A stretch of DNA of 62,183 nt, counting the filler, from Sphacelaria rigidula (taxonomy: Eukaryota): the NCBI GenBank assembly GCA_964200075.2. It is 11 parts of 11 records of this genome, joined end to end, with 100 filler letters (N's around TTAATTAATTAA, not from the genome) between each part and the next. Parts side by side here need not be neighbours in the genome. Positions count along the whole stretch, not along the records: positions 39,636 to 45,197 come from CAXNAA020026313.1; 10 more parts are not named here. One strand, 5' to 3'. Shown here in pieces: positions 20,101 through 57,690 of this stretch. Position 1 is the stretch's first letter. The number at the start of each line of letters is the position of its first letter. The position numbers were made by a program, and so were the translations under genes. The notes beneath the pieces were generated by a model that was given only the letters and a program-made list of their open reading frames with translations, was not told where the DNA came from and ran no database searches.

Positions 20101-21269
20101 GAGACGAGGAACTGCCGATCGTAGGCCAGTATAGATACCTTGGCTTAGAGATATCAAAACACTGCTGTTGGGATGCACACATGAAAAACGTAATAGAAAA
20201 GGGTAAGGCACAGATAGGCAGGACGTGATCCTCGGAGACCCGCACCCAGACACTAGGATTAAGAGGTATCATGACGAACGTATCGTACCGAAGCTGGAAT
20301 ATGCAGGAGAAGTATGGGAGGGGAACGTGAAGTTGGTGAAAAAGTTTGAAACAGTACAGATGGCAGCAGCTAAGAAGATTCTTGGATGCTCGAAAACGAC
20401 GAGTAATAGCTGAGAGCAGAGTTGGGAATGTACTCACTTGAAACCAACATAGGCATGAGGAAATCGCGATGACAATATGAGAACATGCAGAGTAAGAGGT
20501 TGCCAGCTATAGTTGATGAGGCTGTATGAGAGAACAGTACGAAAGGGAGGGCTGGAGAAAGGTGGGATCAAGAAGCCGAGAAAGTGTGGAAAAATATGGG
20601 CAAAAACTCAGACAAAATACTGTTCATAGATGAAGACGCGGGGTACAAGGCAAAAGTAAGGGACATGATCGAAACAAAGGGAAAAAGGAGCGCTCAGACG
20701 CAAAGTAGACGAGGATTAACACCTGGAGATATACGGGGGGTTGAGAGAGGAGATAGGGATGAAAGCATATTTGTATGGCCCGATAGACGCTGCGAAAAAT
20801 ATGTAACTGCGATTTCGGGTGGGGGACCTGGACCTGCCGGAAAGAAGAAAGAACTATATCGGTCGTCGAAAGGAGGAGAAAGTAGATGGGCAGAACTGCC
20901 TTCGTGGCAAAGCAACAGAGAGCAGAACTCACATAGTGGCAGAATGTGAACTATACAAGGAGGAACGGGACGTGCTACAGGGGGAAATGCGGGACGTGAA
21001 CGAAGATAGCATGAAATCGTTTGATGCACTAGACAGTAGGGAGAAAACAAGGGCTATATTAGGTGATACGTTGTGTCCACAGACGGCGGAAGAGGACGGG
21101 GATAAGATGTGTAACAGGTTTTTGTGTAATGTATGGAAGAAACCTAATGAGCGCCGGAGTATTGAAGGTGGCTCTATTAGGAGTAGTAACGGTGCTCCGT
21201 CTGGAAAGGGATGCGTGGTCAATGGTCGAAAGACTGAGGCAAGTAACAAATGTGTACGCCTCCGCCCCC
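17130..21269 (+). mobile_element. Degenerate near full-length non-LTR retrotransposon (LINE family A; AP-endonuclease plus reverse transcriptase)
   Basis: EN start LRIGSWSVSG..DIVGTRKSW at 17705. RT motifs KAEGADGI, GNYRGIMPLS, QARFRPNRSC, QGVAYG..SPILF, MFADEFVG and YRYLG. C-terminal ESRTHIVAECELY. Many stops and frameshifts. Ends GTACG plus a C-rich tail. Confidence 0.93.
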
Positions 21270-25129: not shown

Positions 25130-25453
25130 CGTTCCAGCGACACTTTGCATTTCCCGCTGGCCGCACTTTATTTTCGGCCAAACGTATTTGAAAAAAAACG
25201 GTCGAGCACTAAAGAAACAGCGGGGAAAACTGGTCTACCGACGGCTTTTCACTGAAAATCCGTGCTTGCCTGGTAAACAAAACTGCGGCCAGCGGGGAAT
25301 GCAGAGTTGCCGTGGAACGGTCTCAACGAGTAGAGATGGTCCTTCCAAGGCCTCAATATCCGACTAGCCCTCTTTTCGGGCGTAACTTTACGGAGACGAG
25401 CCCGTAAGGCAGTTTTCAACAGGAATTTCGAACGACTCCCATTAGAGTTGACC
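25130..25453. mobile_element. Partial long foldback MITE (PIF/Harbinger-like, family X)
   Basis: Homologous to 35562-36033. Right end cccattagagttgacc is followed by TTA. Confidence 0.75.
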
Positions 25454-26009: not shown

Positions 26010-26415
26010 GTTGGAAAAGTGCATTTTGGCCCTTCTGCGTCGTTTTCCCCCCGAAAAGAAGGCTAGGCGGATGTTGACACCTTGGAATACCCTGCTTTAC
26101 CTGCTGAGGCCGTTCCAGGGCACGTCTGAATTTTCCGTAGGTCACGGTTTCGTTTTTGGCCAAATTTGCTTTTTCGATAACAAACGGTCTACTTACCAAA
26201 AAAATGCCAGTTTCCCCCCTGTTTTTTCGTAACTTGACCCTTCGTTGTCGAAAATGCAAGTTTGACCGAAAATAAAACTGTGACCCACGGGAAACGCAAA
26301 GGTGCCCTGGAACGATCTCAACGAGTACAGTAAGTCATTCCAACGTGTCAACATCTGCCTAGCCCTCTTTTCGAGCGAAAAACAATGGAGAAGTGTCAGA
26401 AATGCACCTCCCATT
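26010..26415. mobile_element. Long foldback element related to family X
   Basis: Arms aaaagtgcattttggccc..ggctaggcggatgttgacacc and gtgtcaacatctgcctagcc..aaatgcac. Homologous to 41684-42092. Confidence 0.75.
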
Positions 26416-28399
26416 AAAATTTATTTTTCGATACGTAAGAAGTAACCTTAGTAGAGGTATCTCAATCTCGGCTCCCGGTATCCGGGTTTGCTTTTTTTCT
26501 ATTTTTTTAAGTGAACGTGATGCCGATTCATCAGATGATGAGACCCGTTGACCGCCAGGTCAGGTCCTCCTATGAATCGCGATCACTTTCACTTGAAAAA
26601 ATAGTACACAACTCAGAGCCAGCGAATAAACCAGAGGATACGGGGAGCCGAGTTTGAGATACTTCTATTAGGGCTTGTCTTACCACTTTCCTTTTCGATC
26701 GAAAAAATGGGGCGGTGGAATCGATTTGAGCGAAATTTTATCGTTTTGATGCAGTTGGGTCCAGATAGATTTTCAAGCTCTCGATCAAAAAAAGACGGTG
26801 AAATTCGCAAAACGGTACGTGTCACTCGTGTACAGTACGGACGACCTGTACTGTCTGTACTGCTTGCAAGCAGTGTCTTGAGTGCGCGCGTGCGTGTTTC
26901 GTACAGGAGGATATGAAAGAGAAGCGAGCAACGTGCAGTGCAGACAGCCCAGGATTATCTGTTCTCTCTGCTCACAATGCGACGTGAAAAGGACTTCAGG
27001 AACGTGCAGCGTTGCATTGCCTGCACTGCCCATGAGCGTGCACGCAACTCGGTTGCCCACCGTGCCACACAGTTCTGTCGCTGATTACTACCATGAAGGA
27101 AGACGCGCAAGTTTTCGCCAACAAAAAATAAACAAAGCACACGCAACTACTGCAGTGTATATATCCCTGAGCTCAACTCGTGCTCTATGCTGCAGGGTTG
27201 CGGTGGTAGCTAAGAATGAGGTGGATGGAGTTTGCATGGTCCTGTGAACAGGTGTTTCGTCTGGCGTGGTGGTCTGTAAGATACGAGTCAAGTGTTGCTT
27301 CGTGCGTTTCGATAACATGTTTTCGATCGAAAACATTTACTTTTTGCCTAAAATGTTTTTTCTCCGCGCGTCAGCAATTATAATTTTGAGTTGAAGCCTT
27401 CTAGGAAGATGAATGCGGTGGACCTATCAGAGATCGGCAACAGAAATTTCGACAGCACTTTTTCGATCGAAAGGAAAAGGTGTTAAGACACACCCTTAGC
27501 TTAATTTCGAGAGTTGAACTATCAAGTCTGATTTGGGGCATGGATAGAGCGTAATCAAAGATAATGCTTCGGGATGGATTTTGTTTTCCTCGTGAGTTAG
27601 CGGTATTATCTGCCGTGCATACGGCATGAACTATGCGCACATGGTTCGAGATCCCTCCGGGATGAATCAAATTTGCGCTTTCCCAAGCAGCGACCGGTAC
27701 AAGAAACGTGATTTGTACACATCTTGTACTCTTGATTCGTGTGACACTATAGGGAACGTACACGATCCCGTAATTAATTCGTCCGATACTACCTCGAACG
27801 CACAATTTTCTCATTCGTGATTCAGGCCCAACATTATCGACACCGTTTTTTCGGAGATCTCTGAAATTTCCGGGACTGATCAGGTATCTGATGGCTCTCG
27901 AATGCTTGCGAGGGCCACGGCGTACACGCAAAGTAGCTCTCGGAGAGTGCTGCGTTGCAGTTTGAATATTTCGGGCTTGCCCAATGATAGTTCGGAGAAA
28001 GCATCAAGTCGCTTCGTTTTCGGAGTCTGAATGCAGAGTTCGAAGAGTCCGAAAATTTCTGAGATATCCGACAAAAAACAGAGTCGATAATAGTGGACCT
28101 CGAGCGGAGTCGACCGGTATGAACTCTGATTCATCTAATCCTTGTATTCATTCACGGTTAGGGCAAATAATGAGTCGTCAGGAAATTACTTGGTTCTAGT
28201 ATAATAAGTTGNNNNNNNNNNNNNNNNNNNNNNNNNNNNNNNNNNNNNNNNNNNNTTAATTAATTAANNNNNNNNNNNNNNNNNNNNNNNNNNNNNNNNN
28301 NNNNNNNNNNNAAAACCCTTTTCTCTAGGCTCCTGGGTTAGCGTCGAGTGGCAGCGATGCTGTGAAAACAAGTCCACAGAGTTTGCACATGAAATATAC

Positions 28400-35549: not shown

Positions 35550-36215
35550 GGCCGTATCTTAGACCGACTCTAGTGGGAGCCGTTCAAAATTTCTGTTCAA
35601 AACTGCCTTTTTGGCCCTTCTCCGTCGTTTTACGCCTGAAAAGAGGACTAGGCGGATGTTCACGCCTTGGAACGACTTGCTCTATTCGTTGAAACTGTTC
35701 CAGGGCAATTTTGCATTTCCCGCTGGCCGCATTTTCGTTCTTGGCCGAACACGAATTTTCAATGATGAACGGCCAAGCGATCAAAAAACAGGGGGGGAAA
35801 ATCATCACCTGACCGTTTTTTACTGAAAATCCGCGTTTGGCCTGATTTGGCCGAAGAAAAAAGTGCAGTCAGCGGGAAACGCGAACTTACCCTAGAATGA
35901 TCTCAACGAGTAGAGCAAGTCATTCCAAGGCGTCAACATCCGCCTAGCCCTCTTTCACGGCGTGATTTGACGGAGAAGGGTCCAAAAGGCAGTTTTCGAC
36001 AGGAATTTTGAACGGCTCCCATTAGAGTTGGCCTTAGCACATCATTTTCCAATGGAAAAAGTGCGGTGGAAAACAAATATTCCGATCTGATAGGTCGTGA
36101 TTTCAACCACATTCAAGATAAACTACGACAGTTAAAATCACGACCTATCCGATCGGAATATATTTGTTTTCCACCGTACATTTTCGATCGAAGAACGATG
36201 TGCTAAGACACGCCC
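35550..36215. mobile_element. Nested PIF/Harbinger-like MITEs: family X (35562-36033, TTA TSD) inside the left TIR of family Y (TCA TSD)
   Basis: TCA-ggccgtatc-TTA-[gaccgactctagtggg..cccattagagttggcc]-TTA-gcacatc..gatgtgctaagacacgccc-TCA. Confidence 0.85.
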
Positions 36216-38761: not shown

Positions 38762-38781
38762 GAAGTAGTAGTAGTAGTAGA

Positions 38782-38820
<39 letters not shown>

Positions 38821-38878
38821 TGGTAGTGGTAGTGGTAGAGGTAGTGGTGGTGATAGTGGTGGTAGTAGTGGTAGAAGT
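38762..38878. repeat. (AGT)n/(GGT)n compound microsatellite
   Basis: Visible directly in the sequence. Confidence 0.9.
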
Positions 38879-39324
38879 AAGACGATTTTTTTTGCACACG
38901 CGTGCAGAACAAAGACGGTTAAACGCGGGCCAAGAGCATTATGGTTGTCGCACTTTGACCTTCTGGGAAGACAATACCCAAGACATCGCATGAGGTATAA
39001 CCACAAAAAAAAAAACGAAACTATCCACAACTCTTGCTTACGATACCACCTACCAAACTGGCCGAGCATGGTACGCAACGCACACGAGCACCTTGTTTTG
39101 CGGGAATGCGCATACACACTGCAAAGCATGTAAGCTACAAAAAAGCAACACCAGCAGCACCACCACCAACCAATCAACGACACAAGAACAATCGCCAACA
39201 AAGTAACCACCGTCACCACCACACAACCATCAGCACTACCATTCGCACAACAAGTACCACCAATAACACCCACAACACCATACATAATAAAAAAAGTAGT
39301 AGTAGTACATTATAAAAAAGTAGT

Positions 39325-39535
39325 AGTACTAGTACTACTACTACTAGTACTACTACTACTACGCCCTACTAAGACTACGACTACGACTACGACTACGACT
39401 ACGACTACGACTATGACTATGACTACGACTACGACTACGACTACGACTACGACTACGACTACGACTACGACTACGACTACGACTACGACTACGACTACGA
39501 CTACGACTACGACTACGACTACGACTACGACTACG
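39325..39535. repeat. (TAC)n grading into a (GACTAC)n hexamer array, cut by the scaffold end
   Basis: More than 25 GACTAC units from ~39373. Confidence 0.95.
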
Positions 39536-40630: not shown

Positions 40631-41683
40631 GGGTCGGTCCTCCGTTCTTGCTGGTTATGATCGAAACGCTTGGGCGTTGGTTGTTGTCATGTTCTAACCC
40701 TGGGTTCCGCTGATGTTGCACACGATGCTACTGTTGCAACGGCATGAAAGCGAGGGGAAGACGTTTTTTGAAAACAAAATGCCATTACATCGGAATATTT
40801 GGGACTCTAGGATGCGACCGTCACTCAATTAGCACGGGGCAAGTCAGACTGGTGATGCTGACTACTGCGATATCAGCATTTTTTTCTCTCTGTTGGTAAG
40901 ATTGTAGATGAGGGGCAGTGCGTAGGACGGGTGTAAGGGCGTGATTTGTGTGTGAGGGTGTGACTTAGAGGAGCTACGTGGTCATGTAGTTTTGCCCGAT
41001 GTGTTCATGTTTTGTGGTGAAGATAGTTCTTGACGAATCAAGAGGGGTAGACGGTATCTATGGGCTTTCCGGTCGACTCGCACGTTGTCTTGGGTTGTGT
41101 ACATTCAAACCTTCGTCAAGAAGTTGCCCCAGCGGTTGTAGGTAGGAACTGCGTTTTGATTTTAGTAGTTGTACATAATGTGGGGGTATCTCTTCTTGAA
41201 TACACCGCAACCATGTGTTTACATGTCAGCCGCTCGATAGAATCGGGCGGAGATGGCGAGAAGCAATGTATAGGCTCACTGCTTTCATTATATCGGTGAC
41301 CCTCATCCATCCTCCGCATCCTATGGATGTGTCCGAAGCCAGAAGACGAGTTTCACTGATCGCGTCGTTTGGTTCACCAGCTACGCTATCATCTCATACG
41401 CCAAGGTTTGTCGTTTCATCGCACATCCGTAAATATCAAAACCGAACGGTAACCCGCGATTGCAAAATACAAAATACACCCTGGCTTGCTATTCAACTGC
41501 GTGCGTGTTTGTCGGCTCGTGCGTAAATATTTTTGCGCGCGTATCCCCACGTGCTGCCAGCCTTGCCTTACTTGTTCCCATCTCCCGCTCCTCACGGAGA
41601 GTCTCTTCTGCTGCATTCTCCAGATGAATGATTTTCAAGTGCCATCTGATGCCACTCCTCCCTTATGTATCAAAAAGTAATTA

Positions 41684-42092
41684 TTGTTGAAAAGTGCATT
41701 TGTCACCCTTCTCCATCGTTTTTCGCCCGAAAAGAGGGCTAGGCGGATGCTGACACCTCGAAATTACTTGCTCTACTCGTTGAGAACGTTCCAGAGCACT
41801 TTCGCGTTTTCCGTAGGTCACAATTTCGTTTTTGGCCAAACTTTTGTTTTCAATAACAAACGGTGAAGTTATCAGAAACAGGGGAAGAGCTGCCATTTTT
41901 TTTTGATAACTTGACCGTTTGTTGATTGAATATGCATTTATGGCCGAAAACGAAACTGTGACCTACGGATAACGCAAACATGCTCTGGAACGGTCCCAGC
42001 GAGTAGAGCGAGTCATTTCAAGGTGTCAACATCCACCTAGCCCTCTTTGGGGGCGAAAATCGACGAAGAACCAAAAACGCGCTTTTCAACAA
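41684..42092. mobile_element. Long foldback element (family X-related)
   Basis: ttgttgaaaagtgc at the left and gcgcttttcaacaa at the right, with ~190-bp imperfect arms. Homologous to 26010-26415. Confidence 0.8.
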
Positions 42093-42419
42093 AATTCACT
42101 TTTTCCAATTTTCAAATTGGTTGTTGTCTCAGGCTATTCTAGATTCGGCATTAGATTTCTGTGACAGAAAACACTCTCGTTTTTTTCGGAATTCTTGGGA
42201 AAAAACAAGCAGAACTTTTCGAAAAATTGCTCAAACCATGACCCCATTATATAGAGTACAGGGTACTACACTGAACACAAGACAACACAGCAGTTCTGCA
42301 GTGTTTTTTAGTTTTAGAACCCGAAGACGGACTGTATACAGTATGCATCAGCGTCTCTGTCCAGCTGCTGCTGCTGTACTATTACAACAACACAGCAATA
42401 TTTTTTTCAGAATATTTGA

Positions 42420-43381
42420 CACCTTGGACAATACAATATGTAATATATATTGCCCGCTCAATATGTCGACGCGTCAGGTGGTCAATATATATCGGGCAAG
42501 CAATATGATGGCACGAGAGAGGATCAATATATATTGTGCCATCAGTATGTCAAGGCTCGCGACATGCAATATATATCGACCGAACAACATATCACGACAC
42601 GCGCCGCCTCAATATATATTGGACGAGTAATATGTTGGTGCGAGAAGGCACCAATATATATATATATATATATATTTGTCGAGTAATATACTAGCTGCCA
42701 CACGAGGTCAATCTATGTTGATGATTCAATATACTCAACACCCGAAGCGCCAATATATATTGCCGCCCCAATATGTCGTGCGTCAATGCGTCCAATATAT
42801 ATTGGGCGGACAATACACGAGGGAACCGACGGTCACAATACATATTGGTGTAGCAATATATTTTGATTTTCAACATGTAAATTGAAAAGTGCATAATTAG
42901 TATGGTGGGCAGTTCTATGTTCGCGGGCGCCATTGAAAGGTGTATCACCACACGCCGAAAACGCTCAATATACTTCTCCGCAAGCGTGTTCAATATATAT
43001 TGGCTGCACGATAGCTATGCGATGAGCGTGCGCAATATATGTTGGAAAAACAATACTTTTGCATGATTTGCGTTCAATATATATATATATTGGTATCAAT
43101 ATGCTACGCATCGCTTCGACTCAATATATATTGACACTTGAATGCATACACGGCTGGCATGCACAATATATATATTGAATGTTTTATTCCCGGAGCAAAT
43201 GCATGTGCAATATATATTGTCATACATCATTTCTTCATGATCATGACACGAGCAATATACATTGTTGCTTCAATATTTTCGAGAACATCTCAGCACAATA
43301 TATTTTGAAAGGACAATATTTGCGCTGGCTCCAATACAAAGTATTGGTATCATATTGGAACATATTGTATTGTCCAGGGTA
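42420..43381. mobile_element. TIR element (CACC(C/T)TGGACAATACAATATG) filled with a 42-bp-period CAATATATATTG motif array
   Basis: TIRs at 42420 and 43361-43381. About 18 palindromic motifs in two blocks. Confidence 0.8.
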
Positions 43382-43459
43382 TAAGCAACACAGCCCCGGT
43401 GACCACAGGGGTAACAAAAGGCGCATATCGACTCTTATGTCACCATATTTTCTGACCAG

Positions 43460-43493
<34 letters not shown>

Positions 43494-43629
43494 GGTCAAA
43501 CGCATTCGACCACTCTCCGTAGTATTGTACGCGAACTTCTTCGACTCCCTTTGAAGCTTCTCCCAATCTGCACGGGATCCGGCATCCATCGCGTCTCTGG
43601 TTCTTTCTTAAAGCGTACATCATCCTTAT

Positions 43630-43720
43630 AATATCCAATATATATTGACCGGTCAATACATTGGCCCCCACGTAGACCCAATATATATTGACCGGTCAAT
43701 ATGTTCTCACCAATGCGACC

Positions 43721-43762
<42 letters not shown>

Positions 43763-44007
43763 TCGTGCAATATGCTGTCGCCCGCGCTGCCCCAATATAT
43801 ATTGATGGGACAATATGTGTTCAACCCCGCAGTATCAATATATATTGGGCGAGCGATATGTATGCCATCCCACGACATCAAGATATATTGGGCGCACAAA
43901 ACGTGTGCAGTCCAAGGGTACTAATATACATTACGCCGGCAATATATCGCAAAATTTCAATGTGATCGACTCATATATGTTGAAAACATGTTGTATTGTC
44001 CAGGGTG
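43630..44007. mobile_element. Second, partial element of the same family (43-bp-period array plus right TIR)
   Basis: Motifs at 43636, 43679, 43722, 43793, 43836, 43879 and 43922. Ends catgttgtattgtccagggtg. Confidence 0.75.
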
Positions 44008-45297
44008 TGGTATATTTAGTCAAACGAACAAGGCGCTTCCCACACCCATCACTTCTATGCTGTAGTTGTCGCTGTGCTGTTGTGCATTTGAACACCCTAC
44101 GACGAACATGGTGTGATGTGCGCTGGAGAGTGCCTGAACAGTTGTAGTGCTGCATGCGGTGTTCTGGTAAGCACAGAAGTGGGGTGAGCGCTTATGGATA
44201 GTAGAGGCGCTGTAAAACTACTCGTCGTTCAAATCTGCTGCGTGGGCTCGAGATTTAAAAAAACGACGCAGCGTCGGTCATAATAATAGGTTGGGGTGGA
44301 TCCTTCTTTCCACCGTTGGCGCGGGCGGGGGTTTGTACAAGTGGCGCTCTCAGAAAAAAAAACGCACAGACACCCACCACTCACGCGCATTAGTTTCACT
44401 GCTGCTAGCCCTTGCTGATCTGCACACAACAGTCTTTGTTTGACAGCAAATCGGGCCGTAGCTGCTCATCAGCTGTGCACGTTGTGCGTGACCTTGCTCA
44501 CATCTGTTCAGATTTCATTGAGAAATGTTACGGCGGATATCGACTGTATGTGTAGTAGGCGTTTTGCAGTACACGTGGCAAGTGCAGTAGGTCTTATTCC
44601 ATTCGTCTGTTGGTGTTGTATTCCAATCGGGCGTCCTTGACCGGAGCCCACCGCCCTCAGAACTTCCACCACCCAGCAACTCTCGTTTAGCTACCTAGCT
44701 GAGCCAAATTAGTAACAGAGCTATCGGTCACCACTTGGAGACATCTCGCTTGCAAGGAAGTCAAGAGCACCTCTTCTGCACGTGAAAGTGAGTCCCTGCT
44801 TGGCCTTGCGATGCAGTGCTTATCGGACTCGATGGTCTGGTACTCACGCGCTCAAGGGTCGTTCCTCTCGACTGCGATTGTTCAATGTGGCCAGCCGCTG
44901 ACCTCGTGTCACCCCGGGCCGGGCGTGTTTTTTGAGAGTGACGCCAGTATCACCTCGTGATCAGACCACGACATGGTGACCAATCCGAGAATCGAACTCG
45001 GCTTTCCGCAGAATATGATTTTGTGTGAGACGCGCGCGCAGCACACGCTTACAAAACGGTCTGCAACAACACGTTTTCGGTTGTTTTTGACACGCATGCA
45101 GCCGCCATTCGTCCAATACAGAACGGATTTCTGTCAAACAAAGACTATCGTGTGTAGATTAGCAAGGGCTAGCAGCGAAACTAATGCGCGTGAGTGGNNN
45201 NNNNNNNNNNNNNNNNNNNNNNNNNNNNNNNNNNNNNNNNNTTAATTAATTAANNNNNNNNNNNNNNNNNNNNNNNNNNNNNNNNNNNNNNNNNNNN

Positions 45298-48200
45298 TCA
45301 GGGCAGTCACGCATACTGTGGCCAGTACCATTGCAGTTGATGCATGTGTTAGCATGGCGACGAAAAGCATCCTTGCGAGCCGAAGGCGAAATCAAGGGGG
45401 TCCACAAATGTGGGTCATGCGTGATAAAAGTAGTTGTGGGAACGGCATAAACGTCATCAAAAGTATCTGCCGAATAAGGCCAAGCGTCGAAGCTTGCTCG
45501 GGCGGGGTCTTTTTTGCTATGAACAGACATGACCGATTCGCCGACAGAATTGGGTGTCCAAGTGTTACTGGACAAAGTGTGGGTGCGTCCACGCGACCCA
45601 GAGGTGCTCGTGGATGCGGCACGCAAGGTCTGTGAAGACCCAGAAGAAAACTGTGTGCCACGAATGGCAGGCGTTAAATTATGTTCTTGATCTACAAACG
45701 CAGTCCACATCGCGTCTACGGAGGCTTAAGGCACCTCTTTGTGCGCCAAAGCGCCCGGAAACAAAGACGGCATCAGCGTCGGAAATTGCTGAGCGATACT
45801 GTTGCGAACATGTGTCTGACACATCGTATCACTAGGGCTATTCTGTCGGCTAGTACCAGTTACACTTGACACCAAAAGCTTGAAGTCGCGTAGGTAGTCA
45901 GCAAAGGGCACGTCTGTTGCCACGGCAAAGGAACTGAGGCGCTTGATGGCGCCTGCCTGATCAGACTTATCAAAACAACTTATGATGCGCCTTTCCAAAT
46001 TGCCGAATAGTAGCGGCACTGTTTGCCCGCCGGCACAATCTTGATCCATTGCGTCGAAGAAGGAGTCGAGAATCTGCGTGAAAGAAGCAGCGACGTCAGG
46101 GGAGCGACAGTTGATTGAGCGACGCAAAGCCTTGTGTAACGGGGTTTGCCATCCATCAATCCAGTCGGAGTCTTCGAAACATTGTTGTCCAGTTGCATCG
46201 GCCAACTCAAGGATGTTGCGCATCGTTCGACGCATTGAGGAAATGATAGCAGATGTAAACTGACCAGAGTCCTCATTGTCTGCAGCAGGCATGGTTTTGA
46301 TATGCTAAACTTTCTTGACATCCATCTGTAAGTACTCACGCTTGATTACAGCGACACGAGGCGATTCTCTACGAGTATCGGAAGCAGCTTTATCAGCGGC
46401 AGCTTGTTGCTTGGCTGCGACGGCGGCAGCTAGTGACCGAGCCGAGGTAGAAGACAATGAATGAGCCGAATTGTCACTATCACTATCAGTAAGACCTAGG
46501 AGGCGAGCAGACGCCGCCGCCAAAGGGGGCGTTACTTGCCTGACGGCCGGTGAGGGCCGTACGGATCGCGTTGAGGCGCGTTGTTGGTGCCTGGCAGTCG
46601 ATGAACTTGAAGACTGATTACCAGACCGTTTGTGGCTGCCCCGGGTTGTGCGTCGACCGTTGTTATTGTTGCGGTGGGCCCCTTGACCACGGCGTGGTGC
46701 GGCCCCGGGAGGGTCGTCGTCAGAGTCGTCATCATCACGACGGTGGCGAGGGGGGTGAGGTGTGATCCAGGCCCCATCATCATTGGGCGACAGCGTGTTA
46801 TGAGCTGCACGCATAGCAGCGAAGAGGGCGGCGGCGGCGGTCTCATAAGCGGGGCGACTGTCCCCGGTACCGATCGTTGGGTAGAGTACAAGTCGTTCGA
46901 TAGTGAGAGCGCCCGGGTCGTTGTCAGGCAGTTGTCCACCTTGCTGCAGGAAAGGGAAGATCACGCTGTTGATCGGTAGAGTAAGCGAGCGCCAAGCCTC
47001 CTCGGAGGCGCGGAGAACGTGCTTGCGGGTGTACTTTCCCGAAAGTTGGCGTAGCGTCCAAGAAAGCCAAGACCGTTCGCTGCCCTGAAGGCGGAGCCAA
47101 GGTGTGAGCCAAGGTGTGAGGGCAGGGGGCGCCGAGGCTTAGAGGCCCTGCGGTGGCGATGGCGGGGTGCGCGCAGGCGAGGCGGTAGGAGCCGCAGTAG
47201 CAGCGTGTGGGCGCGAGGGCTGGCGTGCTTCCGCCGAGCCGGAAATGGCGGCAGAAGATGCAGGCGCTGGCTCGCGCGGCGTGGTCCTCAGAAGAGGAAG
47301 GTATTGCTCCAGTTCTAGAGAGCGTAGAGCCGTGGTGGTAGTCTCCGTGGCCGTGGTGCATTGACGCAAACGATGTGCATCGCGTCGAATGAAGTCGCGC
47401 ATCTAGTCGAACGCAGCGAGGCGTTCAGTTAGAGTCCATTGAGCCGCCCGCTGGCGGCTGGTCGCCGAATCGACCGCCTGCCGTTGGCGCGTCAGACGTA
47501 CCGAGAGGTCGTCATGGAGAAGACGATGGCCAGCGTCATCCGCCGTTTGGCGGGGTGAGGGTGGCGCAGGGTGCGTGGCCGGGTGTAGGGTGCGGTATTC
47601 CTTGAGAATCTACTCCTGATCGGAGTGGGGTCCACGCAACCAGAATCGGGGAAGAAGGTCCGGCGGGCAATGCTCGACGCCCAACAGGGGGCGGTCGTCC
47701 GTGAAAGCATCTGGTGCAGGCGCCGGAGCCGAACTCGTGGCCGGAGTCTCTTGCGGCGAAGGGTCCGATCCCGCGGGAGCGGCCGTGATAGGGGTGTCAC
47801 CCTGATCCGCCGTGGCGGAAGCCGCAGTTGTCGCCGCGCGGGGGGCGGAGAGCGTGACACGGGTGCTTTCTGCATCCGTATCGATGTCTGCAGCCGCAGT
47901 AGGTGTGGGGGCTGCGATGGGAGCGGTAGTCGAAGGTGCCGGGGCGTCAGCCATGATGGAAGCAGATCGCAGGTATCGACGGAGATCTTCGATTTGTCGT
48001 TCCACCGCACGCACAGTGGCAGCATCAGGATGGGGCGGAAGTGCACGGTGAGTGCTGTGTCCGTCGCGTAAGGGTGCGTGGATGTCAGTCAACGAAGCAT
48101 TCGTGGGCAGCCGTGAACTCACGCGGGCCTGATCGACAGATTTGGGTCGTGAGGATCCCGTGGTTGATGATAATCCTGACAGCAATGCACGTACGTCATG

Positions 48201-49241
48201 AACATGAGTGGTACGATCATCATGGTGGACAGTGTCGTCACCACCCATATCCGAATCAAAGGGCACATCTGAGGTCGAACGTTCGTCATCATGGCCTGCA
48301 GTCGCTGGTACAGAGGCCTGATGGTTCACACTACTGTCAAAGTGAACATGATCTGAGGACGTTCAATGTTGAACGGCTGTGTGAAACGCGGCCGCAAGCG
48401 CTTGTGCAAGGGCAGTTGTCGCCGGACCGTCAGAAGTGACAGCCGGTGATGAACGGAGCAAGTGCTCAAGAGCCGTGACTAAAGGCAGGTGCCCTGTGGA
48501 AAGCTCTTCTGAGCGGCCAAGACGCGAGGAAAATGTTCGACGCGAGGGCTGGTGAACTGAAATGTCCTCACGATACATGCCGTGTCGTCGCGGGCGCTGT
48601 AAGGCATCGGAACCCTTGTGCGACGTACCGAAAACGTCGGAAGGCATGGACGGATGCAGTTCCTCAACACCGCGAGCGTGGAGTGAGTCGAGAACCGCGG
48701 CGGAAGCCTGGAGCAGTTTGTGTTGCACAGCAGTGGAAACGCGTGGCGACTCGGCAGATATGTTGGAACTCCGAGACGGTGTGCGGTTCACAACAGAGCG
48801 AGCGCGTAGCGACTCGGCGATCATGTTGGAACTTCAAGACGGCGTGCGTTTCACAACAGAGCAAGCGCGTAGCGACTCGGCGATCATGTTGGAAGTCTTG
48901 TACAGTGGACGGTCCGCGACAGAGCGAGCGCGTAGCGACTCGTCGATCATGTCGGGAGTCTTGGACGGTGTGCGTTTCGCAACAGAGCGAGCGCGTAGCG
49001 ACTCATCGTTCATGTTGGAAGTCTTGAACAAATGGTGGTCGTGGTCACCAGTAGCAGCCAAGTCTCGGGACGTGTAGACGCCAGAGTGGAGGGCCGAAGC
49101 TCTGTCAGATTTTACTTCTTCGTGTACAGGGGAAGTAAGAATGAATGGTTTTGAAGGAAATGATGAAAAGAAACGCTGACGGCGTAAAGATTTGTAAGAA
49201 AGAAGGGCCGAGGGGAGAATTATTTTCGGTGGTTGCGCCAT
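45298..49241 (-). pseudogene. Retroelement gag/ORF1-like pseudo-ORF (~1300 codons) with a CCHC zinc knuckle, truncated by the scaffold end
   Basis: Seven ORF-track pieces share one frame, broken only by in-frame stops. It ends CINCNGTGHSMRDCP (CX2CX4HX4C), preceded by a helical capsid-like segment (FADYLRDFKLLVSSV). Confidence 0.75.
48730..49030 (-). repeat. 63-bp (21-codon) tandem repeat, 5 copies, inside the gag-like frame
   Basis: gcgcgtagcgactc recurs every 63 nt. Peptide unit is approximately MIAESLRARSVVKRTPSKTSN. Confidence 0.9.
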
Positions 49242-50959
49242 ATTAAATTGAAGAGGTAGAAATGGACGCCAGACACCAGAGTACAATAGTTCTGATGTAG
49301 TAATAGCAGGTAGTGTAGGCTCGGCAGGGGATTGTAAGTACCGAAAAGCAAATTAAGCAGTAAAGACTCCAACATTTATAAATGGAGGTACCCGGAGTAG
49401 AGTAAACTGCGGTGATAATAACAATCAGCGTAATCGCGACAATTTTTACATGTACCGAAAGGGCACACAGCAGAGCAAAGTATGAAGAACTGAAGCTAAA
49501 CGCCGAAAAGAGAGGAACTGCGGCAGAAATACGACACCTGTAGAGGAAACCGTGTATGGGGAACCGCAGGAAGGCGCACTGAAGGTGTACCACATATATT
49601 AATAGTCGTCAAGGAACAAACTTACAGAAAAAGTCAATAGTTTTCGCACGAGAGGTGTGGTGCAAGAGCAAAACCTAACAACGAGACGACTGTGAAAGGA
49701 GGCGGACACTTGGACAGATATCCGACGGCGCACTGTGCACGTCAAATACAACAGGGGTACTTAGTGGCCAGGCACACACTGAACGAGGGTACTACAGTGG
49801 TGCAAGTAGGATACCGCACACAGAAAGTGTAGGTAAACACAACTCGAGACAGCGGAAGACACCACGACTAGTGTAAATCACTTGGCCAAGGTGAAGGCGA
49901 CGATGTGTAAATAGTTGTGGAATTCAATACAGAAAGAGAATCAAAAGGGCGGCAGCGAGGGTGCGAAACACTGGAGTCGAGTGCAGGGGTCCAAGAGGAG
50001 ACAGCTGGAGCAGCCGACTGAACCACAAATGTTGGGGCAGATCAGGCGCCAACTGAGAGGATTACAGGGGGATACGAAATTTCGAAAAACAACAGTAAAT
50101 CGTAAAAGGAACCCGGTAGAACAGCGCCAGAGAGGGAAAAGGTGGATAACGTAGGATACAACCAAAGGGGGGATCGCGCAGTACAGTACCAAAAGAGAAA
50201 AGTGTGTCCCGTAGTACACACACAAGAGATGAAGGATGGATCACCCGGTACACACAGAGAAGATGAAATGCGCGTCGCGGAATACACAACCACAAGATGA
50301 AAAGTGGATCGCGTAGTGCACACCCGGCGGGAAGTTTGAGAAGCGGGGCTGGGGTGTTGTATAAACCCGAGGGAGTGTGCGGTGACAGAAATACAGCACC
50401 GACACGAGTGAGTAAGCGGGGAAGGTGTCGTGTAAGCGGAAGAACAGACGATGTGCGGAAGAACAGATAATGTGTACTACAGTGCTGCAAGACGGTGGAG
50501 CGATGGTTGCTACTGCACAGGTGTTGCACCGAAAAAGTAAGCGTGGATGCTGTATGCGGTGAACTAAAACACTGAAACAGTCAGCGCAAGAGTAAGAGGA
50601 CACCGCACTATAGCCACAGCAGCGGCGCACAAGTGTCAACGTCCTGCAGGGAGAAAGTTAAAGCGGCGTGTTCTGGATTTGTCCAGTAAGGTAAATGTCA
50701 ACCAAAGGGTTTACAACAAGCAATCCGACACAGCGCTGGGCGGGATATTCGGCGAGCGATGTGGGGCAGAAAGGACGATAACAATAGAACAAGGGCACTA
50801 CAAATCAAGAGTGCGGCTCAGGAAAAGGAGCGACCAAAGCATGAGAAGGACAAAGACCGNNNNNNNNNNNNNNNNNNNNNNNNNNNNNNNNNNNNNNNNN
50901 NNNTTAATTAATTAANNNNNNNNNNNNNNNNNNNNNNNNNNNNNNNNNNNNNNNNNNNN

Positions 50960-51018
50960 GATGCGAGGTCAATGGTCTTACGACTATGGCAAGCATGATC
51001 ATGAGTGCACCCCCCCCC
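50960..51018 (+). mobile_element. Family B 3' end
   Basis: gatgcgaggtcaatggtcttacgactatggcaagcatgatcatgagtgcacccccccc. Confidence 0.8.
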
Positions 51019-52499: not shown

Positions 52500-52755
52500 G
52501 CACTCTGGTGACAAGACATGTAAAATGTTTTCGTGCAATGTATGAAGGAAAGTAATGGGCGCCGAAATGTTGGAGGTGTCCCTATTAGGAGTAGGAATGG
52601 TGCTCCGTCTCGAAAGGGATGCGTGGTCAATGGTCAAATGGCCAAGACGAGCAACAAATGAGTACGAAGGGTAGGAACGGTGCTACGTCTCGAAAGGGAT
52701 GCGTGGTCAATGATCAAATGGCCAAGACAAGCAACAAATGAGTACGCCACACCCC
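52500..52755 (+). mobile_element. LINE family A 3' fragment with its terminal ~80 nt tandemly duplicated
   Basis: gtaggaa.ggtgct.cgtctcgaaagggatgcgtggtcaatg..gcaacaaatgagtacg occurs twice (52591-52666 and 52671-52746). Confidence 0.85.
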
Positions 52756-53786: not shown

Positions 53787-56106
53787 ATGCCGTCGCGTCT
53801 TGACCCATGTACCTGCCGTACGGTACCTTCCACCCATCAATCTCTGCCATCAGGAAACGAGGTCAGTGTCACCGTCAACGTGAACAATGCGCCCCTGGTG
53901 CGCGAACAAGAGCAGCTCAACGAGTTACTGAATGCTATATTGCAGGCGTGCTATGTAGAAGAACCGGCGGCACCGAGGCAAGCAGTGCCATCGGCGGATA
54001 CGCCACAGGCGGAACAGGCGGCAGCAACCGAGGATGACGACGAGAGGTACTCGAGCTGTGAGGAAGGCGTCGTCATGGGAGAGCAGAAGGGGCGGGTGAT
54101 TGGTGGTTGCGTGGAGGCAGAGGGTGTCGCAGTGGCGAGGCAGGTGGCTGTGTCTGCCGAAGCAGAACGTTTGCCGCTATCGGTAGATGCCGCCGCCAAT
54201 TCGAGACCGGTGGCAGCAGCGGAGGAAGACGAAGATAAGTATTCGAGCTGCGATGAAGCCCCCTGCAAGGAAGAGAAGAACGGAGGGGTGATCGGTGGGT
54301 CCGGGAAGATGGGGGTTGTCGCGTTGGTGGGGCAAGCGGCCGTATCTGCCGAAACAGAGCATATGCCGCTATCGGCAGATGCCACAGCCAATTCGTCGCC
54401 CGACTTGGGGTTGGAGGTAGCAGGTGTAGCGGACCAGCAGGCACCGCCGGGAGACACCAAGACAATGGGCGCAGCTGTGGAGACACAGGCGGCGGAGACG
54501 GCCGAAACGAAGTATTCGCCGCCGTCGGTAGCCGCTGCCGTCAATACCCCTCCGGATACTGGGGTGGGAAAGACCGGTAAGGCGGCTGAGGCTTTCCCGA
54601 GGGATTCCCTTGAGATAGATCAGTTAACGACCGATGCGTTACGCAAGGAGGCCGATGATGCAGTATGGAAGATCCGACAAGACTTGGGCGATATAGTGGT
54701 AAGTACAGGGTCAACGTTTCGTCGCTCTGGCGGGTAATATTTGAAATAGCAAACGGGTATGCGAAGGCTTGGCATCTTGCGTCGTGATCGATGCAGGCAC
54801 AGTCTCGGGTCAGTGTTCGTGTACAATGCAGCGTGCGTTTTAGCTATACGAGGAAGAGCCAATGTTTCTTTCCTGTAGTGCAGTCAGAACAATTCCAAAG
54901 AATAAACCTGCTGCGGTCACTGGGCGATGAAATGGTTGTCGGTGATTTAAATGCTGGGCCTTGGAGACTGCGATGCATTGGGCTCGCGCGATCTAGTCAC
55001 TCCTCATTCTCTGGTTTATTGTGTATCCGTTGCGCTATTTGGTTTGGTCGTCGTTCGTTTATGAAGCGCATGTTAGCTGACGTCGAGCGGAATAACGGAC
55101 AATTGAAGGAGCATGTGACCACGCTCGAGGAGACAAATCTGAGATGGGAGGTGGGCTTACGAAGCGTTGCGATTTTTTCACCTGTGTATCATCTGCCTTA
55201 CTCTTCTGTACCTCTTTACTTCGCACAACTGCACGCAGCCGTGCTGCTGGGTTGTACTTTTCCAGTAAAACGTTTCCAGTAAAAACTGTATTAATCTGTT
55301 GTCTTCTCATGTCCTTTTGCTGGTGCGCTTGAATCTACACGCGCGATTCACTGTGATGCCGTGGTGCAGCAAGGAAGGGGTAAGATAGCTGCCGCCTTCT
55401 TTTTCAAAAACGAGAATAGTTTTCAGAACTACCGCTTGGCCAACGCAGTTGTGCTTCGTGTGCTAGTTCTGGTATTCTTGCCATTGTTCTTGAGACGAGA
55501 AAAGGCCAACCCCGAGAATTGAGGGTACCAAAAGGTACGTGTCTACGTTGGTAGTTCCCGGTGAATATTCAGGAAGTATATGACGCCATCACCCAGTGCT
55601 GACGACTGCGGGCATCTCTGATGAAGCATGCATCCTCCCCCTGTTCTCCGTCTTCATACCATGTCCCTGTGTTGTCAGTGGGCAAAATCAACCCCGGAGT
55701 TGTGCCGCCGGTTCAGGTGCAGCGGAGATGGTGTTGACATTGTTGGCTCAGTCGTTGGTCTTTGGTAATCGAAGCTGCAGTGTTCCAATCCCGTGTAGAC
55801 TTCTCCTGCATGCTCTGTTGGTGCCGTCTTGTTTGCTATTCCGCTGCTCAATAGGGGGAGCAGTCCTCGTTCCTTAGGCGCATCTCCGAGCTCGACCGCA
55901 AATGCTCCGAAGCCGTTTCCCTCCGGGAGAAGGAGAAGATGAAGGCGATGACAACGATTTCCGCACTTAGGACCAAGCTCTCGAACACGAATGAGGTGCT
56001 TCGGGTAACGCGGTCCAGGGAACGCAGTTTAGCCCTCGATGTCAAGGAGGAACGAGCCTGGACCAGCTGCCTGGTGGAGCAGATCAGCGACCAAGATGAG
56101 CTAAAG
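53787..56106 (+). CDS. Spliced gene fragment: acidic Ala/Glu-rich N-terminal region with a 64-aa internal duplication, then coiled-coil exons
   Basis: Exons ~53787-54698 (gtaagt), 55067-55150 (aag|..|gtggg) and 55855-56106 (tag|..|gtgagc) are all phase 0 and join into one open frame. Exons 2-3 have heptad-like sequence. The start codon is uncertain and the 3' part lies beyond the scaffold. Confidence 0.7.
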
Positions 56107-56873: not shown

Positions 56874-57690
56874 CTGAGAAGCAGGTAGCTCAGAGGCCGG
56901 TAGCAGTCTAGTGGTAAGGAGGGAAGAAGAGAACGCCCGGGTGTGCTGGGAAGCAAGTGGGCCGATGGCCGCGAGCAGCCCGGTCACAAGGAAGCTTGCA
57001 GGGAACACGTAAAGCCACTGGGAAGCAAGTAGGCCGATGGCCGCGAGCAGTCTAGTAGCAAGGAAGGAAGAAGGGAACGTGAAGATGTGCTGGGAAGCAA
57101 GTAGGCTGACGGCCGCGAGCAGTCTAGTGGTGAGGAAGGAAGAAGGGAACGCGTGGATGTGCTGGGAAGCAAGTGGGCCGATGGCCGCGAGCAGTCCAGT
57201 CACAAGGAAGCTTGCAGGGAATACGTGAACCCACTGGGAAGCAAGTAGGCCGATGGCCGCGAGCAGTCTCGTGGGAAGGAACAAAGTAGGGGACGCGTGG
57301 ATATGCTGGGAAGCGAGTAGGCTGATGGTCGCGAGCAGCCCAGTCACAACGAAGCAAGCAGGGAATACGTTAACGCAGCACTGGGAAGCAAGTAGGCCGA
57401 TGGCCGCGAGCAGTCTCGTGGGAAGGAAGGAAGCAGGGAACGCGTGGATATGCTGGGAAGCAAGTAGGCTGATGGCCGCGAGCAGCTCAGTCACAAGGAA
57501 GCAAGCAGGGAATACGTTAACGCAGCACTGGGAAGCAAGTAGGCCGAGGGTCTCGAGCAGTCTAGTGGGAAGGAAGGAAGAAGGGAACGTGAAGATGTGC
57601 TGGGAAGCAAGTAGGCCGATGGCCGCGAGCAGCCCAGTCACCAGGAAGCAAGCAGGAACATGTGAACGCACTAGGAAGCAAGGATACACT
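56874..57690. repeat. 72/75-bp minisatellite, ~11 units of two subtypes
   Basis: ctgggaagc recurs at ~56946, 57018, 57090, 57162, 57234, 57306, 57381, 57453, 57528 and 57600. Confidence 0.92.

Follow-up and report, generated by a model that had tools for sequence, protein, structure and literature searches.

The segment at approximately 42417-44010 of the 62,183-base stretch of Sphacelaria rigidula DNA analysed here (the window) is, with a probability that we would put at roughly two in three, one member of a very numerous family of non-coding, non-autonomous cut-and-paste transposons, in which a phased array provides presumptive transposase-binding sites. The motif, its period, the inverted ends, an insertion with a target duplication, the high copy number, the fixed spacers and the lack of recognisable coding capacity were all observed directly, and from these we infer that a protein binds, which protein it is and that transposition benefits. 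The element is ~1,594 bp long, with 964 bp up to an internal copy of its end sequence. At this length "non-autonomous TIR element" is a better name than MITE, the latter being usually shorter than ~800 bp.

The array is built of the pattern CAATATATATTG-N6-CAATATR, which by eye gives 25 units in a single orientation at 42441-43945, arranged in three blocks on the plus strand: block 1 (42441..42860) has 10 units, each with the order palindrome-N6-half-site-N17 and a step of 42/43 bp, block 2 (42991..43320) has eight units in which the half-site is more decayed, and block 3 (43636..43946) has seven. The motif is tripartite, with a palindrome formed from two inverted CAATAT half-sites and a third half-site, CAATAT(R)T, 6 bp further on; the first position of N17 is T in 19 of the 25 units, so that the half-site is really CAATATRT. 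When CAATATATATTG-N6-CAATAT was searched for with up to three mismatches, 25 matches were found (21 on the plus strand and four on the minus strand, the latter being palindromic echoes), all of them within 42441-43945, compared with 0.03 expected by shuffling, and none of 100 shuffles reached 25. The first-pass annotation of this DNA, which had described about 25 units in the same orientation at these positions, was borne out in this respect. Twenty-one of the by-eye units were recovered by the composite pattern; the four that were missed are those at 42652, 43075 and 43164, whose palindromes are (TA)n-expanded, and that at 43208, which has no recognisable half-site. Of the 25 half-sites in the array, 18 have at most one mismatch, and most of the failures are in block 2. 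The 12-mer palindrome alone, with up to two mismatches, occurs 28 times in the window, 27 times in 42441-43879 and once outside, at 33566.

The steps from unit to unit range from 42 to 71 bp when uncorrected. However, after subtraction of the (TA)n expansions, the 22 within-block steps are 42 bp (12 steps), 43 bp (nine) and 45 bp (one), and those of block 3 are all 43 bp, in agreement with the earlier attribution of the larger departures from a 42/43-bp period to expansion of the palindrome (21 of 22 steps). Four palindromes are expanded in this way (at 42652 in block 1, at 43075 and 43164 in block 2, and at 43722 in block 3, the last to (TA)18) and the phase is broken at each, so strict phasing is not kept in the window copy. 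Between blocks 1 and 2 lies a central non-repeat segment (42861..42990), in which a single half-site stands at 42967, 24 bp ahead of the palindrome that opens block 2. Alignment of 42418-43381 with 43382-44009 reached only 60-70%, in many registers and driven by the motif, and the blocks are not recent duplicates of each other.

Conservation within the units is very uneven: averaged over the 19 motif positions the commonest base has a frequency of 0.85, but over the 23 positions of the spacers one of 0.41. Internal shuffling of the N6 and N17 spacers gave a mean ungapped identity of 0.252 ± 0.006, whereas the real spacers reached 0.281 over 300 unit pairs (z 5.2), meaning that the earlier description of the spacers as mutually unrelated is close to correct but does not hold wholly. 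The best spacer pairs (43636/43679 and 43836/43879) have an identity of 0.61, a value also reached by 9% of shuffles, and ACCGGT is, as had been annotated, the only N6 that recurs. Tandem Repeats Finder reported two short stretches of block 3 only (74-81% matches) and nothing in blocks 1 and 2, a near-silence that fits units having only the motif in common; elsewhere in the window it found ordinary arrays with 73-94% matches (e.g., 48740-49026, 52591-52746 and 56895-57670). An ordinary minisatellite, in which units are alike over their full length, was rejected on the basis of the spacer identity and the blank result for blocks 1 and 2.

A kept motif and spacing beside near-random spacers is what phased protein-binding sites, such as the subterminal motifs of known transposons, should look like, and the sites here are putatively of this kind. 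On this view the body of the element is a tandem array of long standing, with 25 direct units repeating every 42/43 bp, of which the motif and spacing alone have been retained. As judged from the sequence, the fact that unit length was kept despite near-saturated spacers argues for selection on motif and phasing in the lineage in which the array was built. An unlikely alternative is that the array is a neutral relic, an old minisatellite between transposon ends whose motif survives for mutational reasons and has no binding function, the AT-rich palindromes being re-created by slippage or conversion while the GC-rich spacers decay faster. A tandem-duplication origin is indeed shown by the weak residual similarity of the spacers and by that of neighbouring units, the (TA)n cores are unstable (in addition to the four expansions, two letters at 43166 are left out in ~30% of the depth), and it is common for satellites to be seeded by tandem repeats inside transposons (PMC9659126, PMC4079207). 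However, slippage accounts for the TATA core and not for the conserved CAAT/ATTG flanks, the separate CAATATRT half-site at its fixed 6-bp distance or the 42/43-bp length kept beside near-random spacers, and the end sequences share the motif.

Contigs of four public runs were aligned to 41900-44500; three of the runs are DNA-type (X1, X3 and X4, from two studies), and none of the runs listed as carrying the sequence is recorded as RNA. Run X6 is RNA by guess only, and the coverage that it gives the element indicates neither expression nor silence. Pieces aligned at ≥85% identity, mostly 85-95%, numbered 13,691 (X1), 13,368 (X3) and 11,171 (X4), although these counts, like the depth, were taken over all 2.6 kb, in which other repeats also lie, and are not copy numbers. 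Pieces from other copies span four to six units including their spacers at this identity, and single units are individually recognisable across the family, with only 59-75 pieces per DNA-type run fitting two places. Based on these multi-unit alignments and the few double placements, both the order and the sequence of the spacers are fixed across a very abundant family, contrary to the earlier inference that spacer sequence is free. The spacers are inherited rather than acquired, because they are the same, and in the same order, across the family.

This result removes an attractive but wrong reading, that of a eukaryotic CRISPR-like spacer array. We consider an array that acquires spacers or serves as a template of phased small RNAs extremely improbable. 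The first-pass annotation had raised spacer acquisition and had set the between-copy comparison as its refuting test beforehand; that comparison returned the same spacers in the same order. The likeness to CRISPR is one of superficial architecture only, in that a conserved repeat alternates with unlike spacers of constant length, whereas the element is dispersed and high-copy in a eukaryotic host with a eukaryotic-looking, repeat-rich genome, its "repeat" is a split motif of 12 + 7 bases, and no cas genes were found in the window, none of whose 113 stop-free frames has a cas-like domain. External viral matches, which had been suggested as a check, were not obtained: the two-unit pattern and the end pattern each had 0 matches in a collection of viral contigs, and the sole blastn match of the element to phage records was a 34-base TA run. 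The two-unit pattern also had 0 matches in 596 billion bases of prokaryote genomes. A scan with the single-unit motif did hit at least 119 metagenome loci and six viral loci, but none of the 125 loci checked has more than three loose palindromes or the end sequence, and these matches to a pattern that is too short were rejected as chance. Three matches of the end pattern in bacterial MAGs were likewise not accepted as relatives, as the motif is not nearby.

The end sequence occurs three times in the window, compared with 0.00 expected: as the left terminal inverted repeat (42420..42440, plus strand), as an internal copy (43361..43381, minus strand) and as the right terminal inverted repeat (43987..44007, minus strand), with 0, 1 and 0 mismatches, respectively, to the 21-bp end pattern. 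The annotation of a TIR element therefore stands with respect to the inverted ends at 42420 and 44007, but the TIR string that it gave is one or two letters off each copy. The inverted 31-nt arms are 84% complementary and the tips read CACCTTGG and CACCCTGG, or CACACC when two further bases are counted. A CAATATG half-site lies inside all three end copies at an equal distance from the tip, and the inner part of the left end, CAATA-CAATATG, corresponds to the half-site of the array. The span shared by the family begins at ~42419, the outermost one to three bases of the left end being uncertain; at the right end one contig record aligns up to 44008.

The neighbourhood of the element is packed with other repeats. 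The element itself sits in a host repeat, the left part of which (42103..42410) is very abundant in its own right, with a loose end at 42103 before which 122-132 contigs per DNA run have a flank agreement of 0.33-0.34, and the deepest coverage of the stretch is at 42074-42160. The right part of this repeat (44017..44161) retains high depth to 44161, after which depth falls, and has joints to 42284-42415. Copies of the surrounding repeat without the element were detected through the joint 42411->44012, which skips 1600 bases and is present in three, four and four contigs of X1, X3 and X4, respectively. These empty sites retain a single hexamer, whereas the window has two, flanking the element. 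Sequence and empty-site joints together place the left copy of the target-site duplication, AATATT, at 42411..42416 (42410-42417 in an 8-bp reading) and the right copy, TATATT, at 44011..44016 (44010-44017), with five of six or seven of eight letters alike; depending on where the tip is placed, agreement of the hexamers is 6/6, 5/6 or 7/8 letters. A second type of host-repeat copy, with the joint 42389->44017 and 24 letters between, also has a single hexamer-length stretch. The element was thus inserted with a target duplication of 6-8 bp, as observed for one insertion only. Since the flanking hexamer is palindromic, it could in principle belong to the inverted ends and lengthen them. Of the six listed pieces starting at the left end, four begin at 42411, which may reflect either a target preference or a longer end.

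A loose end at 42419 is shared by 61 contigs, and agreement among their flanks is low (0.41). These disagreeing flanks suggest many insertion sites and, together with the piece counts, mark many dispersed copies in differing flanks. We regard as very unlikely the alternative that this is a piece of satellite or an ordinary repeat, dispersed or segmental, which does not move as a unit and whose inverted ends and hexamers are coincidental. While such a repeat would suit the repeat-rich surroundings, and the duplication is known at one site only and its hexamer is palindromic, it is at odds with three properly inverted occurrences of a 21-bp end sequence, with host-repeat copies that lack exactly the stretch between the hexamers and with the disagreement of the flanks before 42419.

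The internal end copy has the orientation of a right end and is preceded by inverted half-sites (CATATTG; 43343-43372). Inverted half-sites are limited to the last ~40 bp before each right-end copy, and the array units all face rightwards across the element, whereas many transposons have mirror-image subterminal sites at their two ends. The linker beyond the internal copy (43382..43635) includes, at 43460-43497, a microsatellite of (TA)n(TG)n type, and at 43466-43552 the depth is far below that of the rest of the stretch (10,010 versus 50,000-200,000 in run X1). The first-pass annotation had treated the region as two element copies, which is doubtful, as three listed pieces of other copies cross the internal end into 43382-43434, reaching 43413-43434; loose ends stopping at 43432 were seen in 51-59 contigs per DNA-type run. 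The 1.6-kb arrangement looks like the structure of the family rather than two independent neighbours.

No Pfam family was assigned to the four stop-free frames of at least 110 aa that overlap the element, and a 100-aa translation across its left end had no homologue in the protein collection. Across the window, the 113 stop-free frames gave only weak matches to RVT_1 and zf-CCHC. The autonomous partner with the same TIR that had been proposed was not found within the window, where the end sequence occurs only the three times noted above and a transposase domain was not detected. A 500-aa ORF at 7971-9473 in the window has no Pfam family and only three unnamed matches. No Rfam family reached its gathering score, the sub-threshold matches being miRNA-like and falling on a neighbouring hairpin repeat and on TA runs. 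The palindrome string was not found in the literature, and a 12-base piece of the end retrieved papers on Staphylococcus biofilms, HIV and other subjects, with none on transposons among the matches listed. When 42418-43381 was folded as single-stranded DNA, the two ends paired and the palindromes paired (z -6.8 versus 20 shuffles), a score that is due to the inverted ends and palindromes and is uninformative on function.

Among known systems, the earlier annotation had pointed to CACTA/En-Spm elements. According to PMC2613891, CACTA elements carry repeated subterminal motifs, with an AT-rich part and a GC-rich part, that are bound by element-encoded proteins, and the soybean element Tgmt* has 24 repeats in 732 bp. 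The analogy holds for the repeated subterminal motifs, 25 units here: in both cases many short motif copies, separated by non-conserved sequence, adjoin the inverted ends, autonomous CACTA elements encode a Tnp2-type transposase and a TNPA-type binder, and their non-autonomous derivatives are moved in trans. Membership of the CACTA superfamily was nevertheless rejected, although with a single insertion this is not final, because the ends are CAC(A)CC and not CACTA and the duplication is 6-8 bp and not 3 bp; with the tips at 42420 and 44007 the 3-bp flanks are TGA and TGG, alike in two of three letters. In addition, the units of our element are all direct, strictly phased at 42/43 bp and fill most of its length, whereas CACTA repeats are mixed direct and inverted, form stem-loops and are confined to the borders.

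Elements of the hAT type (Ac, Hermes) are similar in having short inverted ends and multiple short binding motifs within; their target duplication is 8 bp, or 5-6 bp in some groups, beside the 6-8 bp of the one insertion seen here. However, hAT motifs are only 5-6 bp long and irregularly spaced, in contrast to the 19-base tripartite motif at a fixed period found here, and the hAT end signature, YARNG, is absent from our tips (CACAC and CACCC). In the window we found no hAT transposase (BED finger, DDE and hAT dimerisation domain) to which the element might be tied. According to PMC10368747, the repeated subterminal motifs of Hermes are bound by an element-encoded protein, and the oligomeric hAT transposase contacts several repeats through several BED domains, an idea that agrees with the mechanism proposed for our element.

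Tetris, miDNA4, pearl/CvA and Galileo, which are of the MITE or foldback type, are likewise non-coding and have inverted ends and an internal tandem array, as described in PMC9659126 and PMC4079207. Their units are alike over the full length and tend to homogenise, whereas only motif and length are kept here. They also share with our element a number of units that varies among copies; in the S. rigidula family unit number differs in steps of ~42 or 84 bp, as seen from joints that skip 42, 76, 83 and 84 bases. Protein-binding boxes kept in otherwise diverged tandem monomers are known from the CENP-B box of alpha satellite and from plasmid iterons. The resemblance lies in a short conserved box at a fixed place, a drifting remainder and phased binding of one protein, although those arrays are located at centromeres or replication origins and ours lies between transposon ends in a dispersed family.

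In the transposon reading that we favour, the half-sites most likely dock a sequence-specific DNA-binding domain of a transposase or accessory protein, which would be supplied in trans by an autonomous partner. Each palindrome would be occupied by one dimer, and spacing of about four helical turns would place successive sites on the same face of the helix, allowing many protomers to lie side by side. In this way the local level of transposase at the ends could be raised, and the element would exploit its partner as an efficient parasite. Weighing against this reading are the shared direction of all units, the decayed half-sites of block 2, the four phase-breaking expansions and a window in which no partner was found. 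The phased protein-binding scaffold proposed in the first-pass annotation is consistent with the kept motif and spacing, the near-random spacers and the location of the array inside a TIR element, with sites that are presumptive at the level of sequence. A phased same-face layout would suit any cooperative DNA binder, and the sites might instead bind a host transcription factor, a chromatin or silencing factor, or a replication or matrix-attachment factor, with the element spreading a regulatory or structural module. The CAAT...ATTG palindrome resembles what we take to be dyad sites of homeodomain-type factors. We nonetheless consider a host-directed function quite unlikely, as the motif lies within transposon ends, which points to the transposition machinery, only one of the loose palindrome matches in the window is outside the element, and there is no tie to genes. 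It is conceivable, but improbable, that the transposon represents a superfamily not yet described in this lineage, whose binder polymerises on the ~25 dyad sites at a four-helical-turn phase into a filament-like scaffold far longer than the contacts of Hermes or En/Spm, and which targets a palindromic AATATT-like site resembling its own half-site.

The element is an ordinary kind of object in the sense that arrays of subterminal binding motifs are a long-established feature of some transposons. It would be a clean example of selection on a mobile element keeping a binding motif and its helical phase while the rest between them drifts and, if the partner transposase is found, a natural and highly regular substrate for cooperative end recognition. 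Annotation of this repeat-rich genome gains a defined, very abundant family that can be recognised by two diagnostic strings, its end sequence and its tripartite motif. A family consensus was also defined, and it is more regular than the window copy: of 29 majority differences listed inside the element, eight restore letters of the motif (42588, 42973, 43260, 43855, 43882, 43900, 43929 and 43962), that at 42973 being a T in the lone half-site of the central segment.

We consider the element at ~42417-44010 to be a non-autonomous cut-and-paste transposon whose array would serve as a binding-site track for a protein supplied by an autonomous partner, either its transposase or an accessory DNA binder, a reading to which we give a probability of roughly two in three. 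Reading the sequence at 42000-44600 and tabulating the units gave 25 of them in one common orientation, in three blocks of 10, 8 and 7 (starting at 42441, 42991 and 43636). In each, the palindrome CAATATATATTG is separated by six variable bases from the half-site CAATAT(G/A), after which come another 17-18 variable bases; since a T lies directly 3' of the half-site in 19 of the 25 units, the motif is one base longer. With (TA)n expansion removed, the 22 within-block steps measure 42 bp (12 steps), 43 bp (nine) or 45 bp (one). The first-pass annotation's account of about 25 same-orientation units at a regular step was thus upheld, with 21 of the 22 steps at 42 or 43 bp.

Searched at up to two mismatches, the palindrome has 28 matches across the 62,183-base window, of which 27 fall within 42441-43879. 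The composite pattern, at up to three mismatches, occurs 25 times against a shuffle expectation of 0.03 (21 on the plus strand, and 4 on the minus strand that are palindromic echoes). It recovers 21 of the 25 tabulated units; those missed have (TA)n-expanded palindromes (42652, 43075 and 43164) or an unrecognisable half-site (43208). The 21-bp end sequence is found three times in the window (0.00 expected), on the plus strand at 42420 and on the minus strand at 43361-81 (an internal copy) and 43987-44007 (the right end), and its inner part, CAATA-CAATATG, has the half-site in common with the array. The TATA core of the palindrome acts as a microsatellite at 42652, 43075, 43164 and 43722, with expansion up to (TA)18, and two letters at 43166 are absent in ~30% of the family depth, so palindrome length differs among copies.

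The spacers within the element are very different from one another, although not wholly unrelated, as they had looked in the first-pass annotation: ungapped identity over the N6 and N17 segments of 300 unit pairs averaged 0.281, against 0.252 +/- 0.006 for internally shuffled spacers (z 5.2). The top pairs (43636/43679, 43836/43879 and 42483/42610) reach 0.61, a value attained in 9% of shuffles. Averaged over the 19 motif positions, the frequency of the commonest base is 0.85, versus 0.41 over the 23 spacer positions. Tandem Repeats Finder missed blocks 1 and 2 entirely and picked up only two short segments of block 3; in other parts of the window it reported ordinary arrays (73-94% matches). 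Taken together, this looks like a tandem array of old date that later underwent some local duplications and has drifted near randomness in all but the motif and the unit length. Near-saturated substitution is normally accompanied by many insertions and deletions, so the retention of a 42/43 bp length is itself evidence of constraint.

Contigs of four public runs were aligned to 41900-44500 at an identity of at least 85%. The three DNA-type runs (X1, X3 and X4), which come from two studies, gave 13,691, 13,368 and 11,171 aligned pieces over the whole 2.6-kb stretch, other repeats included, and since alignment depths are not copy numbers we read these counts solely as "very abundant". The X1 pieces comprised 1,524 at 99% identity or above, 3,428 at 95-99%, 5,616 at 90-95% and 3,123 below 90%. 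Among the matches listed, 31 of 32 pieces overlap the element (aligned length 171-290 bp), each with 17-35 differing letters and covering 4-6 units, spacers included. By our arithmetic, copies alike in the motif alone would show an identity of ~57% (100% over 19 of the 42 positions and 25% over the remainder); at the observed identity of at least 85% the spacers must therefore be common to the copies. Only 75, 67 and 59 pieces in the three DNA-type runs fit two places of the stretch, so every unit is individually recognisable across the family. Near-unanimous majority letters occur inside spacers, as at 42476, where G accounts for 230,840 of 232,612 depth units in X1.

The first-pass annotation had proposed spacers free to differ between copies and, more speculatively, a CRISPR-like array that acquires them. 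The first proposal is contradicted by spacers and spacer order that are fixed across the family (at least 85% identity over 4-6 units), and acquisition is excluded. By the annotation's own criterion, an unchanged order of spacers from copy to copy, the array reduces to fixed repeats of a transposon family. It disagreed with a CRISPR array on every point tested, and we reject the CRISPR-like option. Inside the element 29 majority differences were listed, and eight of them bring back motif letters (42588, 42973, 43260, 43855, 43882, 43900, 43929 and 43962), so the family consensus is more regular than the window copy, and joints skipping 42, 76, 83 and 84 bp in aligned contigs indicate that unit number differs between copies.

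The flanks of the element belong to another abundant repeat, with its left edge at 42103 (122-132 loose ends per DNA-type run, agreement 0.33-0.34) and depth that is high through 44161. This host repeat (42103-42410 and 44017-44161) is the most abundant part of the stretch in the aligned runs, with a depth maximum at 42074-42160 and a sharp left edge; no second copy was found in the window. In other host-repeat copies 42411 is joined to 44012, skipping 1,600 bp (3, 4 and 4 contigs in X1, X3 and X4), and in a second variant 42389 is joined to 44017 with 24 letters between, which close with a six-letter stretch at the equivalent place. The window has two flanking hexamers, AATATT at 42411-16 and TATATT at 44011-16, whereas uninterrupted host copies have a single such stretch, which is the pattern of insertion with target-site duplication. 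This single site allows two readings of the duplication, one of 6 bp, in which 5 of 6 letters agree (6 of 6 after a shift by one), and one of 8 bp, in which 7 of 8 agree. The family-shared span begins at ~42419 (loose ends in 61 X1 contigs, flanks agreeing poorly at 0.41), and on the right one piece among the matches listed extends to 44008. From its last letters, the loose-end consensus suggests a family tip with CC ahead of ACACC, as in the reverse-complemented right end; the window's left tip would then be slightly mutated. Among the matches listed, four of the six pieces beginning at the left end have 42411 as their first position, and the flanking hexamer is itself palindromic; either there is an AATATT-like target preference or the inverted ends extend beyond 21-25 bp, and the single hexamer in empty sites favours target preference.

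The stretch 42418-43381 is bounded by proper ends on both sides. Three pieces from other copies, among the matches listed, cross the internal end copy into 43413-43434, and the stop at 43432 (51-59 contigs per DNA-type run) has a consistent continuation (agreement 0.79-0.82), so that, judging from these contigs, the whole arrangement of complete unit, linker, block 3 and second right end is repeated in the genome. Block 3 has about half the depth of block 1, and shorter forms may therefore also exist. That the two parts are recent duplicates is ruled out by alignments of only 60-70% in many registers.

No Pfam family was found for the four stop-free frames of at least 110 aa overlapping the element, and all 113 such frames of the window yielded just two weak matches, to a reverse-transcriptase fragment at 19719-20225 and to a zinc knuckle at 45249-45725. 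Neither tRNA genes nor an Rfam family at gathering score were detected, and the window held no further copy of the element and no transposase linked to it. Against metagenome and viral contigs the single-unit motif gave only single chance matches among the matches listed. The two-unit pattern had no match in prokaryote genomes or viral contigs, the end pattern had three unrelated bacterial matches and none in viral contigs, and phage records had only a TA run in common with the element. The exact palindrome string did not occur in the literature searched, and a 12-base end piece matched 25 papers, of which the 10 listed deal with Staphylococcus biofilms, HIV and similar topics and none with transposons.

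For the binding-track reading, the motif, its phase, its presence in the ends, the insertion signature, the abundance, the fixed spacers and the lack of coding capacity are observed; protein binding, the protein involved and an advantage in transposition are inferred. Each unit offers a dyad of two abutting inverted CAATAT half-sites and a third half-site 6 bp away, and the half-site is present in each end sequence as well. As 42-43 bp is four turns of B-DNA, successive dyads lie on one side of the helix. The lone half-sites are on the opposite side, since by our arithmetic their distance to the centre of the dyad, 15 bp, makes ~one and a half turns. Many cooperative sites would raise the local transposase concentration at the ends, which would explain the abundance of a non-coding derivative. 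Against this, all units run direct from one end to the other, the block 2 half-sites are decayed, and the phase of the window copy is interrupted by four (TA)n expansions. The phased binding scaffold proposed earlier is a reasonable suggestion and the reading we prefer.

The element represents a new family within a familiar class, worth noting for its unusually strict phasing and for an array that occupies most of its length. CACTA/En-Spm had been offered as a parallel, and membership is not supported: the ends lack the CACTA end sequence and the duplication, at the one insertion site, reads as 6-8 bp rather than 3 bp. The duplication length of hAT elements is compatible with the 6-8 bp reading at the one insertion site; the hAT end signature is absent from the element's ends. 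In working principle CACTA subterminal repeat arrays are closest, their motifs being described as bound by TNPA-type proteins and as cis-requirements for transposition, with AT-rich and GC-rich parts and, in Tgmt*, 24 repeats in 732 bp (PMC2613891). The subterminal repeats of hAT elements likewise resemble the array; in Hermes, several BED domains of the transposase octamer contact them (PMC10368747). MITEs and foldback elements have an internal tandem array with varying unit number, as here (PMC9659126; PMC4079207).

Beside the element, 41672-42104 is a 433-bp foldback (hairpin) repeat (arms 41709-41854 and 41925-42070, 82% complementary), with relatives at 26010-26439 and 35588-36001 and a fragment at 25313-25382 (77-83% identity). 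It has sub-threshold plant-miRNA-like Rfam matches (best 58 bits, gathering score 140) and probably represents a MITE family of its own. At 44336-44500 lies a further abundant, sharp-edged repeat (loose ends at 44355, 44403 and 44451, continuations consistent at 0.75-0.88), with a 76-bp match on the opposite strand at 45126-45197. The stretch 17000-21000 has a strong plus-strand purine excess (GC skew 0.26-0.40, AT skew 0.28-0.36) and contains a weak RVT_1 match at 19719-20225 (E 7.6e-6, under the curated cut-off); it is likely a decayed retroelement. Skew is similar at 49000-51000. A 500-aa ORF at 7971-9473, where GC content is locally high (0.60), matched no Pfam family and has only three database relatives, all unnamed (the best apart from itself at 38% identity across 39% of the query), and recognisable genes were otherwise not found in the window. 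Long trinucleotide and hexanucleotide arrays occur at 39327-39535 and 38764-38879 (ACTACG x34, AGT-type x38), and Tandem Repeats Finder reported ordinary minisatellites at 48740-49026 (63 bp), 52591-52746 (80 bp), 54020-54395 (192 bp) and 56895-57670 (72/147 bp).
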